Shown here piece by piece: positions 8,946 through 16,863 of a stretch of DNA of 64,000 nt. Where the stretch lies: NCBI GenBank assembly GCA_036253055.1, contig GCA_036253055.1_4124.1; one strand, given 5' to 3'. Both the position numbers and the translations under genes were made by a program. The notes under the pieces were generated by a model. It searched no databases and was not told the origin of the DNA. It worked only from the letters and a program-made list of their open reading frames with translations. The DNA is from a phage. Position 1 is the stretch's first letter. Every line of letters begins with the position of its first letter.

Positions 8946-9269
8946 TTATTCACCTTGTTTGAATTTAGTTTTCTCCATTGATTCCATGATTGCAACCAAT
9001 ACAGCATGGATCTCACTTAACGCGGCATCACTAAAAGCATTAATGAATAGGCAATCATTCTCGCGAATATTTTTAATGTACTTATCAGCAGTGGTTGCGA
9101 ATTCATTCAACGGCAGATCAAATGCTTTATCCCATAATGGATGGCGTAACTGTAACAGTACTGGATTATCACGGTCACCAGGTGAGAAAGTGCCTGTAAT
9201 GAAACATACACCAGGGATACTTTCGAATTGACAACGAACTTCTTTTGTGATAGTAGTATGAATATACAT
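8946..9269 (-). CDS. hypothetical protein
   Basis: 107 aa; SD GAGGA. Confidence 0.5.
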   Translation of the reverse strand: MYIHTTITKEVRCQFESIPGVCFITGTFSPGDRDNPVLLQLRHPLWDKAFDLPLNEFATTADKYIKNIRENDCLFINAFSDAALSEIHAVLVAIMESMEKTKFKQGE

Positions 9270-9296
9270 TTATTTTTATCCTCTATTAAATTAATA

Positions 9297-9485
9297 TTAC
9301 AGTTTATGAATCAATTCTTTATCTAAGCGATAGCGAACATTATTGATTGTAACTGCATTGTTTTTAATGCTACGCTGTACAGGTCCACCAGCAATAACAA
9401 ACGTTGCCTTATTGCCCCGAACGATGATAGCACTTCCAGGATTACCAAAATCATCTTGTACTAAAATACTTGATAAGTTTTGCAT
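9297..9485 (-). CDS. hypothetical protein
   Basis: 62 aa; SD AAGGAAAG; promoter and hairpin 9503-9561. Confidence 0.5.
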   Translation of the reverse strand: MQNLSSILVQDDFGNPGSAIIVRGNKATFVIAGGPVQRSIKNNAVTINNVRYRLDKELIHKL

Positions 9486-9533
9486 TTGTCTTTCCTTGTA
9501 GTGGGGAGAACTATTCTCCCCTTCATGTAAACT

Positions 9534-9561
9534 ATTATACAGTACTTAAAACTAAATGCAA
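9534..9561 (-). promoter_or_regulatory. sigma70-like early promoter (TTGCAT, 16 nt, TATAAT) for gene 9297..9485
   Basis: Minus strand TTGCAT-N16-TATAAT; UTR hairpin GGGGAGAACTATTCTCCCC at 9503-9521. Confidence 0.6.
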
Positions 9562-9564
9562 GTA

Positions 9565-9921
9565 CTAGGATAAAATCATTATAGGATATTCACAGTTAAT
9601 CAGTACTTCAAAACCAAAACTTTCATACCATTCTTTAAGATTAAACTCGTTATCTTCTCCCGTATCGCATTCTAAGATGATACAATCTGAATCATCGGCG
9701 GCATCAATAAAGGCATTCATTAATTCAGTACCTTCACCGTTACCGCGATTATCGGGATCAACATAAAGAGAATCAATAAACGCTACACGATCATAATCAA
9801 GATCCGGTGCAACAATGCCACGTTTAACAAACCAGTACTGCAATTGTGCTACTTTGCCTTGTACTTGATAGCCAGTGATCTCACCATTGTCTGTAGTACG
9901 CGTGATATGTTGTATACCCAT
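9565..9921 (-). CDS. GNAT-family N-acetyltransferase-like protein
   Basis: Motif-A-like DNRGNGEGTELMNAFIDAA; 118 aa; SD GAGGA. Confidence 0.5.
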   Translation of the reverse strand: MGIQHITRTTDNGEITGYQVQGKVAQLQYWFVKRGIVAPDLDYDRVAFIDSLYVDPDNRGNGEGTELMNAFIDAADDSDCIILECDTGEDNEFNLKEWYESFGFEVLINCEYPIMILS

Positions 9922-9984
9922 GATTTCAATCCTCAGTTAAGATATAAAATATTATACACTAACTAACAGCACTGTCAATACTTT

Positions 9985-10242
9985 TTATCTCATAGATCTA
10001 TGCCAACAATTACGGGGATTGCGTTTGAATATGCTATCATGATCAGCCTGGCAAGTGATGCAGTACTTACACCCCTTAACGGCCAGGCGGCGATTCTCAG
10101 GGATTTTATCGCCGCAGTCGAGGCAATGTATCAGTGATTCTATTTGTGCGTTAATTTGCGTTCTAGCGTGGTTTACAGCGGCCTGAATCACTGCGTTAAT
10201 CTCGTCTTGCTCGGCCCCGTCATTCGCGAATCCAACAGCCAT
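9985..10242 (-). CDS. TraR/DksA-family C4 zinc-finger protein
   Basis: CLDCGDKIPENRRLAVKGCKYCITCQ fits the TraR/DksA C4 zinc-finger pattern. Confidence 0.6.
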   Translation of the reverse strand: MAVGFANDGAEQDEINAVIQAAVNHARTQINAQIESLIHCLDCGDKIPENRRLAVKGCKYCITCQADHDSIFKRNPRNCWHRSMR

Positions 10243-10405
10243 TATTTTAACCTCATTATAAAAATACTATAGTACTGTAATGCTACAATAATACTACTAG
10301 TACTGATTTTATTCAAACCGTATGATACTACATATTCCCCAGCATTACCACGAATGGTAACGCCTTTGTACTTTCTATATAATTTCAACTACGTTTATTG
10401 CCTTT

Positions 10406-10476
10406 GATCAAGATTTGATCAGAATTATACGCCTTATGCTAAATTGATCCAGTACTTTTTTGATCATTTATTGATC
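10406..10476. promoter_or_regulatory. cluster of five TTGATC (GATC) sites in 71 bp
   Basis: GATC at 10406, 10417, 10446, 10462, 10473, each preceded by TT. Confidence 0.45.
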
Positions 10477-10571
10477 GATATTATATAGTTACATTTGTGC
10501 ACCCTATGGGTTAGTGACGTTCTCGTCTTGATGTAAGTATTATGCCAGTACTGGCATAATTTGTCAATAGA

Positions 10572-10769
10572 TTATTTTAACTTTTTTCTGTCATTGATTA
10601 ATGCTTTCAGTACTATACTAATGATCTGCAATGATTCATCAATGACTATAAAATTATTTTCTTTCATTAGATGATAGTTACCATTGATTGTATATTCTAA
10701 GGAGTACTGTTTACGTTTAATTTTTGATAATGTTTCTATTTGTTTTTGTACTGATTTCATGCTAATCAT
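10572..10769 (-). CDS. hypothetical protein
   Basis: 65 aa ORF. Confidence 0.45.
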   Translation of the reverse strand: MISMKSVQKQIETLSKIKRKQYSLEYTINGNYHLMKENNFIVIDESLQIISIVLKALINDRKKLK

Positions 10770-10874
10770 TGTTAAACGTCCTGTAACGCATTCTAACGAG
10801 TTAAACGGTTTAGTACTGGCATTGTATAGGGTAAAGGATTAAAGCCCACCAGCGTTAACCAGTGGGCTATAATC

Positions 10875-11018
10875 TTACATCTTGCGGATAATCTTAACAG
10901 TATCTTTCACCGATTTACCGTCTTGCTGACATTGTTCGATCATCGCGTATTGTTCTGCGGTCAGATCCTCGCCAGTTTTTGCCAGTACTGCGTCGATGAA
11001 TGAATCCAGTGCGATCAT
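10875..11018 (-). CDS. small hypothetical protein (47 aa)
   Basis: Not in track; hand-translated MIALDSFIDAVLAKTGEDL... Confidence 0.4.
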   Translation of the reverse strand: MIALDSFIDAVLAKTGEDLTAEQYAMIEQCQQDGKSVKDTVKIIRKM

Positions 11019-11117
11019 TTTGTTTCTCTCTTAGGTTAAGTTAACTACTGTTTATAAAACTTATTATACAGTACTATCAAACTATGTCAATATCTTTAAT
11101 AGTACTGGTAATATATT

Positions 11118-11297
11118 TTAGCGGTAGTCGTCGTATGCTTTATTCACCTGGCGAATGTAACTTTCAAAGGCTTCGTCTACCGTTTCATACTCCCGAACAT
11201 AATCACCATAGGAAACTACATACATCCCTTTTTGATCTTCAAACGTCATGATGATAGAATCCAGGCCGATGATTTCAGTTTTTGCGATAATAGCCAT
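11118..11297 (-). CDS. small hypothetical protein (59 aa)
   Basis: Not in track (59 aa); SD AAGGAA; hand-translated MAIIAKTEIIG... Confidence 0.45.
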   Translation of the reverse strand: MAIIAKTEIIGLDSIIMTFEDQKGMYVVSYGDYVREYETVDEAFESYIRQVNKAYDDYR

Positions 11298-11380
11298 TTT
11301 AGTATTCCTTAGTAGTGTAGTTGATAAAAGTTATTATGCCAGTACTATCAATCATTGTCAATAGTACTGTGATAATATTT

Positions 11381-11593
11381 TTAGTTAATGATAGTCAGTG
11401 TAAAATTGTAATCCCCTGCCTGGTATAGTACTTTGTCGCCGAATGTACCAACACGTTTCATATTGCAATAGATACCCATAACACTTTTTACATCTTTGAT
11501 ATTCCGAACGCCTGTGATATCCTTGTTGAAATTTTCATGTTCAGAAAATAAAACTTGTTTTGCATTTTTCAGTACAGTGCAGATATTAGCCAT
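11381..11593 (-). CDS. hypothetical protein
   Basis: 70 aa. Confidence 0.5.
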   Translation of the reverse strand: MANICTVLKNAKQVLFSEHENFNKDITGVRNIKDVKSVMGIYCNMKRVGTFGDKVLYQAGDYNFTLTIIN

Positions 11594-11686
11594 TTTGATT
11601 TCTCTCTGTTTGTGGGGAGAACTATTCTCCCCTTGATGTAACTTATTATACAGTACTATAATCTATTGTCAAACTATTTTTTAATA

Positions 11687-12028
11687 TTATTCAAAATCTT
11701 CTGGACCGGACTGATAATCATCTTCACCGTATGCACTTTCTAACTTCTCGCCAGTGTGATCATCAGTTAGTGAGTCATCCTCATAGTTCACGTCTACGCC
11801 TACAATGTAAAACTGGCTATCGTCTGGATCATTGAAATTAATTTTCTGAATGTTTACAATAACGGTATTGATGCCCAGGACACCGCCATCAGCAGTTACA
11901 AAGTACTGATATTTTTCACAACCGCCTGAATTGAAACCGTAATTAATTTCGGCCCGACCATCATTTAAACGCAGTGCCTGGGCGATGATTTCATTTTCAA
12001 AGTTAGATTGAGCAATTGAGATAGTCAT
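11687..12028 (-). CDS. highly acidic hypothetical protein (candidate DNA mimic)
   Basis: 113 aa; D/E-rich C-terminus DDSLTDDHTGEKLESAYGEDDYQSGPEDFE; SD AAGGAAAC. Confidence 0.5.
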   Translation of the reverse strand: MTISIAQSNFENEIIAQALRLNDGRAEINYGFNSGGCEKYQYFVTADGGVLGINTVIVNIQKINFNDPDDSQFYIVGVDVNYEDDSLTDDHTGEKLESAYGEDDYQSGPEDFE

Positions 12029-16396: not shown

Positions 16397-16506
16397 TTGT
16401 ATATCCTTTGTTAGTACTAGGGAGTATTCCCGATTAGATGTAAAACATTATACGCGTTTAAAAACTATTATCAAGTACTTTAATATAAAAGTATTTGAAA
16501 AAAAGT

Positions 16507-16535
16507 CTTGACAACTGCATCCAGTACTGGCATAA
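16507..16535 (+). promoter_or_regulatory. plus-strand sigma70-like promoter (TTGACA, 17 nt, CATAAT) driving a short non-coding transcript
   Basis: TTGACA 16507-16512, CATAAT 16530-16535; followed by CCCACAGGGTGC motif and hairpin 16610-16640; no ORF. Confidence 0.45.
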
Positions 16536-16641
16536 TATCTACATAAAGACGAGATAGTCACTAACCCACAGGGTGCATAGATCCGTCTATTAAATGATTC
16601 AGTACTGCAAAATAAAGGGGATCGTTTGATCCCCCTGATTA

Positions 16642-16863
16642 TTACTTAGTAAGATATAAACAAAAATCACCTTTCTTTGATACTCCGCAAGTGTAACGCG
16701 ATGAATAGTTAGAAACGTCTTGTACTTCTGCAATGACGAGCGTATCATCATTTAACTCATCGCAAAAACATACTGCGGGATCTTCTACGCCGATATTGTC
16801 GGCATGTTCCCGCATAGATTTAACCAGTGCTTCAAGCTGGGAAAGAGTAGTGATATTAGCCAT
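16642..16863 (-). CDS. hypothetical protein
   Basis: 73 aa; SD TAAGGAG. Confidence 0.55.
   Translation of the reverse strand: MANITTLSQLEALVKSMREHADNIGVEDPAVCFCDELNDDTLVIAEVQDVSNYSSRYTCGVSKKGDFCLYLTK

Follow-up and report, generated by a model that had tools for sequence, protein, structure and literature searches.

The DNA analysed here, a stretch of 64,000 nucleotides referred to throughout as the window, evidently derives from an Asteriusvirus jumbo phage of the 121Q type: the 1.2 kb surrounding the locus described below is 98.6% identical to Escherichia phage 121Q and has matches in 37 jumbo phages of Asteriusvirus type that infect E. coli and Salmonella. Its counterpart in phage vB_Ec-M-J is situated approximately 12 kb into an annotated direct terminal repeat of 21.5 kb; direct repeats of about 20–21.5 kb have been determined in five such jumbo phages, and that of fEgEco12 has been confirmed by restriction mapping (PMC13070987). 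The terminal-repeat neighbourhood consists of very small genes that all read from the minus strand, most of them having a promoter of their own. Within it, five TTGATC sites stand in front of a 48-aa protein gene (gp293 of 121Q) and a gene for a TraR/DksA-type protein (Table 1).

Table 1. Features at and around the GATC array (positions in the window, unless given relative to P3)
Feature	Position	Strand	Basis or remark
TraR/DksA-type C4 zinc-finger gene, 85 aa	9985..10242	-	Pfam PF01258, E=2e-11; annotations in relatives
48-aa protein gene (121Q gp293, phrog_38664), TTG start	10242..10388	-	PHROG, E=9e-34
Left 11-bp direct repeat ATTATTTTAAC (GTTAAAATAAT on minus strand)	10241..10251	.	identical 11-mer at 10571-10581
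Cassette body (P1, leader, GATC array/P3, gp293, in that order)	10252..10570	-	comparison with relatives
Right 11-bp direct repeat ATTATTTTAAC	10571..10581	.	includes stop codon of 65-aa gene
Upstream 65-aa gene (phrog_36844)	10572..10769	-	adjoins traR directly in phages without the cassette
Promoter P1: TTGACA (10567..10562), 17-nt spacer, CATAAT (10544..10539)	10539..10567	-	consensus scan, 11 of 12 matches
Leader: short hairpin, then CTAACCCAYAGGGTGCAC	10484..10532	-	common to the multi-copy promoter-leader family
Predicted P3, -35 hexamer TGGATC	10451..10446	-	comparison with relatives
Predicted P3, -10 hexamer TATAAT	10424..10429	-	16 nt downstream of -35; from Hallingskeid-group comparison
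TTGATC sites 1 to 3 (TTGATCA, TTGATCA, TTGATCC)	10404-10409, 10415-10420, 10444-10449	+	sequence
TTGATC sites 4 and 5 (TTGATCA, TTGATCG)	10460-10465, 10471-10476	+	sequence
Dyad 1 (sites 4 and 5), GATCAATAAATGATC	10462..10476	-	sequence and comparison with relatives; GATCs at about -59 and -48 from predicted P3 start
Site 3 (TTGATCC on plus strand)	10444..10451	-	overlaps P3 -35 hexamer TGGATC; singleton in 121Q clade
Dyad 2 (sites 1 and 2), GATCAAATCTTGATC	10406..10420	-	about -3 and +9 relative to P3
Promoter-leader copies	3356, 5277, 8144, 10499, 12163, 18934, 20531	-	
Promoter-leader copies	16571, 20695	+	
GATC positions relative to P3 (approximate), 121Q clade	-59, -48, -32, -3, +9		
GATC positions relative to P3 (approximate), PBECO4 clade	-59, -48, -43, -32		
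GATC positions relative to P3 (approximate), Hallingskeid	-59, -48, -16, -5		

The accessory cassette and the gp293 gene

The sites are carried on a 330-bp segment that is a mobile accessory cassette between 11-bp direct repeats, the left of which includes the gp293 stop codon and overlaps the ATG of the traR/dksA-like gene. The cassette occurs in 28 asteriusvirus records but not in phages phAPEC6, ph0011 and UE-S1, which in an alignment of twelve relatives lack exactly this segment; these three carry one copy of the 11-mer, and their 65-aa gene overlaps the traR/dksA-like gene directly by TAATG. Since the cassette is missing from sister phages, and no copy of the gp293 gene was found elsewhere in them, the unit is dispensable. 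In Erwinia phage Hallingskeid, an HNH endonuclease gene (2515-2943) is inserted directly upstream of the cassette promoter P1, and this insertion is missing at that place in the metagenomic relatives L110, L112 and L114.

The original prediction described the segment as a 330-bp intergenic region and set the sites upstream of the TraR/DksA-like gene. Both statements need amending, since gp293 occupies part of the segment, leaving 10389-10571 as its true non-coding portion, and is itself the gene directly downstream of the array. The traR/dksA-like gene follows behind it, and the overlap of stop and start codons (TAATG) predicts that it is translationally coupled to gp293. In the 5' half of gp293 approximately 40% of bases differ between the 121Q and PBECO4 clades, with the frame intact and the replacements conservative; conservation as a protein despite such divergence of the DNA indicates a real gene. 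It is annotated in 121Q and omitted or shortened in several other annotation records, from which our analysis rescues it. A 60-aa Hallingskeid product (CDS9) matches phrog_38664 at 5.8e-7, and homologues also occur in six metagenomic relatives.

An AF2 model of gp293 (pLDDT 91.8) has four strands and a helix and would amount to an AP2-like fold. The AP2/integrase-arm class is defined by a three- to four-stranded antiparallel sheet on a C-terminal helix together with sequence or profile similarity to AP2, and Foldseek searches of gp293 against the PDB, Pfam searches and PDB-sequence profile searches returned nothing significant, while its viral structural neighbours are uncharacterised proteins. 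In view of these uninformative matches, DNA binding by gp293 is only suggested. Weak tblastn matches to T7-like 'endonuclease' genes were spurious, the matched region being the Endonuclease VII domain, with an hhalign probability of 0.5%. A YVVSYG motif is common to gp293 and to a 59-aa gene nearby (11118-11297, minus strand; phrog_9374), a family that the Hallingskeid homologue also matches weakly (E 0.056), and the two genes may be paralogues among the small sheet-plus-helix early proteins. Pectobacterium phage CBB carries an unannotated 49-aa homologue of gp293 (MRVLKSHNDIIFATYGDCYMVKKG...) at 590-737 in its terminal repeat, with a 10-bp inverted repeat (ACTCGCATAG ... CTATGCGAGT) that spans the 5' UTR and the start codon.

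Promoters and a repeated leader

Promoter P1 has a TG upstream of its -10 hexamer and a predicted start near 10532, and its -35, its -10 and CCAGTACTGG are conserved in relatives. The spacer is filled by a 20-bp perfect palindrome (TTATGCCAGTACTGGCATAA, 10540-10559) that extends into the -10; since 121Q and other relatives have a different right arm, the full palindrome is specific to the window phage. The leader behind P1 is nearly invariant between the 121Q and PBECO4 clades and includes CTAACCCATAGGGTGCAC, which reads GCACCC on the opposite strand. The copy of GCACCC that had been reported from this region is genuine; it lies at 10499 and belongs to a multi-copy element, a leader with a strong promoter that recurs at about nine places in the window.

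In this element a strong promoter, often within a terminator-like hairpin, is followed by a short first hairpin and by CTARCCCAYAGGGTGC, and the arms of the first hairpin change in compensation among copies (GAC/GTC, GTC/GAC, GCC/GGC, TGAG/CTCA, GGC/GCC, AGCA/TGCT). Matches extend to 116 phage records of RaK2-like and other jumbo phages, each genome having several copies, and the hosts are Escherichia, Klebsiella, Yersinia, Pectobacterium, Cronobacter, Erwinia and others. The element has no match in Rfam. RNAalifold applied to 13 leader copies recovered only an invariant CCC/GGG hairpin, its recovery being limited because MAFFT misaligns the variable first hairpin. In phage 7t3 a copy of the leader runs directly into a ribosome-binding site. 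The element may represent an RNA motif conserved in 5' leaders, or else a shuffling module. Shuffling modules are known in T4-type phages as PeSL cassettes, in which small early genes each stand behind a repeated promoter and stem-loop. The likeness is that here too a promoter-leader unit, itself repeated, stands before a gene that phages either have or lack as an exact 330-bp cassette, but this cassette is bounded by an 11-bp repeat across a stop/start overlap and not by two PeSLs, and the leader motif CCCAYAGGGTGC is unrelated in sequence.

One plus-strand copy, with a P1-type promoter and leader at 16500-16650, is directed against all neighbouring genes. About 90 nt later this copy (16.50-16.64 kb) ends in the hairpin GGGGATCgtttGATCCCC (GGGGATC-N4-GATCCCC), the stem of which is invariant in RaK2, Muenster and phAPEC6 and is annotated in Muenster as a terminator. 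The segment resembles a gene for a conserved small RNA, about 85-105 nt in length.

Between the leader and gp293 we predict a further promoter, P3, starting near 10417. Its -35 hexamer is weak in the 121Q clade, with three of six consensus positions, and the consensus scan missed it; the prediction comes from comparison with relatives. The sequence GTATAATTCT is invariant in both asteriusvirus clades while the adjoining bases vary, and in the PBECO4 clade site 3 is a TTGATC with a partner GATC 11 bp upstream, giving a P3 of the form TTGATC-N16-TATAAT. Hallingskeid and six relatives share the same P1 and leader ahead of their gp293 homologue; after these come GATCAA-N5-GATCAA, 6-8 nt, TTGACW, 13 variable nt and a palindrome GATCAATAATTGATC, then a good Shine-Dalgarno sequence and an ATG. 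P3 in this group comprises TTGACW, a spacer of constant length (17 bp) and variable sequence, and AATAAT, the -10 being bracketed as GATC-AATAAT-T-GATC; a conserved -35 and a constant-length but variable spacer before AATAAT form the signature of a real promoter. The Hallingskeid group has a further GATC one base past the -10 of P1. A terminator scan found none.

The GATC array across lineages

Five copies of TTGATC in 71 bp are indeed present, as originally reported. The even spacing then attributed to them is not what the sequence holds: their starts are 11, 29, 16 and 11 bp apart, making two pairs and a singleton. Both pairs are dyads of the form GATCAA-N4-TGATC, with the GATCs 11 bp, or one helical turn, apart. 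Across the window, four or five GATC inside 75 bp occur only at this locus, and the dyad pattern was found at no second place in the 64 kb, which fits a local cis element. A comparison of GATC density had been proposed as the check on the prediction, and it bears the cluster out: the array has about 70 GATC per kb against a window average of 2.2. When the sequence was shuffled with dinucleotides preserved (800 shuffles of the whole window and 2000 of the first 24 kb), at least five GATC in 71 bp arose in 2/800 and 2/2000 shuffles respectively; five co-oriented TTGATC arose in none, the maximum being three (5/800 and 2/2000). Positions 1-22000 contain 4.05 GATC per kb (observed/expected 0.85) and positions 22001-64000 contain 1.26 per kb (0.48), and this step at 22 kb is a sharp compositional boundary for the Dam site. 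The depletion of GATC elsewhere (22-64 kb) makes a retained cluster the more notable. Recent tandem duplication of an 11-mer was rejected as the source of the pairs, the five bases outside TTGATC agreeing, by eye, at only one to three positions.

Dyad 1 is identically placed in seven Hallingskeid-group sequences and in both the 121Q and the PBECO4 clade, its GATCs falling 28 and 39 nt after GGGTGCAC in every lineage. Among nine distinct sequences none of the 8 GATC-core columns of dyad 1 varies, compared with 6 of the 13 flank and spacer columns (one-sided p=0.03), and between groups the leader and dyad are about 87% identical, against 36-40% or so for the encoded protein. Dyads of the form GATCAA-N4-TGATC are kept in the PBECO4-clade and Hallingskeid-relative cassettes. 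Dyad 2 is restricted to the 121Q clade, and phage Turkey5 has lost site 1 from it. Two 11-bp GATC pairs are nonetheless found in every lineage, the second having been rebuilt at differing places (Table 1) but always upon predicted P3, and at least one GATC falls on a core element of this promoter; in the window, site 3 lies in the -35 and site 2 at about -3 to +1. The core is followed by AA at 7 of the 8 sites that arose independently, giving a flank consensus of tGATCAA. Within the Hallingskeid group dyad 1 is not at a constant distance from the P3 -35, the variation being 6-8 nt. Pattern scans of IMG/VR for the dyad arrangement yielded no further family members; their matches were 121Q itself, collagen-like coding repeats (GSKGDQG) and unrelated 11-bp tandem arrays.

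Such turnover bears on whether the array does anything at all. It could be functionless, a by-product of promoter-like, AT-rich sequence and of the shared descent of related cassettes: TTGATC agrees with TTGACA at four of six positions, several of the sequences compared are close relatives and hence not independent, and a promoter match TTGATC-N18-TATAGT can be found on the plus strand. That match was rejected as a promoter because it is not conserved, reading TACAGT in PBECO4 and being absent from the Hallingskeid group. The absence of five co-oriented copies from every shuffle, and the persistence or replacement of sites while flanking DNA and protein diverge strongly, further weaken this explanation, which we consider improbable.

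The array lies within the predicted P1 transcript, and GAUCA...UGAUC hairpins in the leader could act at the RNA level, tuning mRNA stability, processing or translation of gp293. A fold places hairpins of 5 and 7 bp exactly on the two dyads, and the 28 nt between leader motif and dyad 1 are constant in all lineages. The stems are short and AU-rich, however, and the fold is no stabler than shuffled sequence (z = -0.59; 53/200 shuffles at least as stable); there is no Rfam match (E<=1, 9000-12000) and no terminator. In PBECO4 the second pair overlaps differently, so that turnover preserves 11-bp phasing of the DNA and not particular stems, and a palindromic 4-mer core with one-turn spacing is a feature of double-stranded DNA recognition. 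An RNA-level role thus seems to us still more doubtful than the absence of any function.

GATC clusters also mark oriC and the P1 oriR, and an origin core of either type, or a pac-like packaging site, was considered in turn. The region is AT-rich (GC 0.30-0.33), and the P1 pac hexamer TGATC(A/G), methylation of which controls protein binding and cleavage in P1 (PMC10028697), is matched at four of the five sites. The likeness to P1 pac extends to the arrangement of such repeated hexamers as two groups and to a Dam-type methylase encoded by the phage itself. P1 pac, though, extends over 161 bp of pacA and combines seven hexamers (4+3) with sites for IHF binding and cleavage, while the array has five sites in 71 bp around a promoter in a dispensable cassette. 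The IHF consensus WATCAANNNNTTR has no exact match in the array, where the dyads read GATCAANNNNTGA, two mismatches off. A P1-type pac site was rejected for want of that consensus, because viable relatives lack the cassette and because the locus is 12 kb from the repeat boundary, inside a terminal repeat of about 21 kb and away from the genome ends. A Dam-dependent origin was likewise rejected: 10243-10571 contains no DnaA box, box counts are at chance, and neither a GC-skew inflection nor iterons are present. As the cassette is absent from viable sister phages, it is very unlikely to hold an essential origin or pac site, and we regard this explanation as the least probable of all.

Proposed control of transcription by the array

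Taken together, the observations describe an array that is non-random, conserved and situated in a transcription-control region; it is real and functional-looking, and the original prediction of an operator or methylation-sensitive control region was broadly right, with the reservation that the AA flank points to more than a bare GATC being read. Tentatively, and ahead of the other readings, we favour the array as a DNA-level, Dam-methylation-sensitive operator/promoter at P3, serving gp293 and the traR/dksA-like gene. On this proposal, two dyads and an orphan Dam site would surround a weak internal promoter of sigma-70 type and lie across the route of transcription from the strong early promoter P1, so governing transcription into gp293 and the gene coupled to it. 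Their methylation state would be set by host Dam and by a phage methylase of the Dam family (PF05869), and would shift with replication of the phage DNA. Methylation could act directly, given that the -35 and the start site each overlap a GATC; alternatively, a protein might bind the paired GATCs on one face of the helix, SeqA on hemimethylated DNA being the obvious candidate. By either route, expression of the cassette would be tied to replication and methylation status of the genome. We infer methylation or SeqA as the reader, and likewise the direction of the effect.

Several observations make GATC (Dam/SeqA) logic a serious candidate. All the hosts are Dam+ Enterobacterales. The asteriusvirus methylase is represented by Sharanji gp542 (PF05869 'Dam', E=7e-32), with a 100% identical gene in 121Q; no homologue of E. 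coli Dam occurs within the 64-kb window, the phage methylase gene being situated elsewhere in the genome. Lactococcal and staphylococcal phage genes are 43-47% identical to the asteriusvirus enzyme. A methylase of a lactococcal phage, described as a short DAM enzyme with a single motif, makes G6mATC (PMC4190342), and may or may not be among those genes; family membership suggests GATC specificity for the asteriusvirus enzyme as well. By ChIP, SeqA prefers GATC pairs that lie on one face of the helix at intervals of about 10 or 20 bp, its targets having at least two GATC separated by less than about 50 bp (PMC2912659), and the spacings of 11, 29, 16 and 11 bp agree with this geometry, the 11-bp pairs being conserved in three lineages. 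Against the proposal count the start of P3, which is predicted by comparison, and its weak -35 in the 121Q clade, as well as the variable distance from dyad 1 to P3 and the CBB homologue of gp293, which has a plain promoter without any GATC array.

The closest described architecture is the gtr control region of phage P22 and Salmonella, in which GATC pairs at -110/-97 and -46/-33 are read by OxyR and Dam (PMC2909390). There too, four GATC form two pairs in a control region of about 115 bp just upstream of a phage accessory operon, and one pair lies over the promoter -35; the pairs are spaced 13 bp in gtr and 11 bp here, where the flank consensus is tGATCAA. A phase-variation switch of the OxyR/Dam kind (gtr, agn43, opvAB) was rejected both on this spacing and on OxyR half-sites (ATAGnTnnnAnCTAT), which match the array only with three mismatches and are at chance in the window (523 against 512 expected). 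Since the phage is strictly lytic, heritable phase variation is not the purpose of the array. In lambda, SeqA regulates pR through GATC sites, and pR also responds to DksA (PMC2777414); the likeness would be that GATC pairs spaced by roughly one turn are read by a host protein (PMC2912659), which modulates a phage promoter, and the difference is that the relevant GATCs are downstream of that promoter, with no dense dyad array.

Promoters with GATC in the -35, the -10 or the start are familiar from IS10 pIN, IS50, dnaA P2 and P1 cre, where methylation alters promoter strength after passage of the replication fork; these have one to three GATC, without a conserved paired dyad upstream. We know of no such Dam-sensitive promoters in the early-gene cassettes of jumbo phages. 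The papers found on RaK2/121Q-like jumbo phages give only consensus promoter motifs and do not mention GATC arrays, and methylation data were not found in them.

To our knowledge neither Dam nor SeqA needs an AA flank, and its conservation (GATCAA) makes a sequence-specific protein a strong rival. The array could then be a methylation-independent operator, in which such a protein reads tGATCAA heptamers one helical turn apart, a possibility that we rank second to methylation-dependent control and consider somewhat unlikely. GATCAA at 7 of 8 independently arisen sites, with every pair as GATCAA-N4-TGATC, goes beyond what Dam and SeqA need, and dyads placed over a promoter, with their small gene immediately behind and always accompanying them, are the typical layout of an autoregulator. 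The natural candidate is gp293, which as autoregulator would repress P3 and block read-through from P1. The two possibilities are not mutually exclusive. In all the Dam switches known to us, a specific protein competes with Dam at a GATC within its own site.

The cassette might even be a self-contained epigenetic timer, in which gp293, with its modelled AP2-like fold, would be a new small methylation-dependent reader of tGATCAA Dam sites. We give this little credence; if true, SeqA and the Dam methylase of the phage itself would be competitors of gp293, and the cassette genes, including a TraR/DksA-like modulator of RNA polymerase, would switch when genome replication starts. How RaK2/121Q-like jumbo phages time the expression of their genes has hardly been studied, and GATC-type control logic has so far been described chiefly in temperate phages (P1, Mu, P22 gtr) and transposons, so that the early region of a strictly lytic jumbo phage would be an unusual setting for it. 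Conserved Dam-site dyads on a promoter, a Dam-family methylase of the phage's own and avoidance of GATC elsewhere together make a cheaply testable candidate for methylation-coupled early control, for which the sister phages that precisely lack the 330-bp cassette are a natural control, effects on infection being directly comparable.

Two further short palindromes depart from expectation in the window. GCGC is absent from all 64 kb, where about 53 copies are expected from a second-order Markov estimate; such complete avoidance of this 4-bp palindrome (an HhaI/HinP1I-type site) suggests strong restriction avoidance. AGTACT is present in 267 copies (for example at 10271, 10299, 10451, 10547 and 10609), with GTAC at 1.49 times expectation; in the terminal repeat it stands directly upstream of the -35 (AAAGTACTTGACA) and the -10 (AGTACTGTATAAT) of early promoters, a placement by which it is apparently part of early-promoter architecture.
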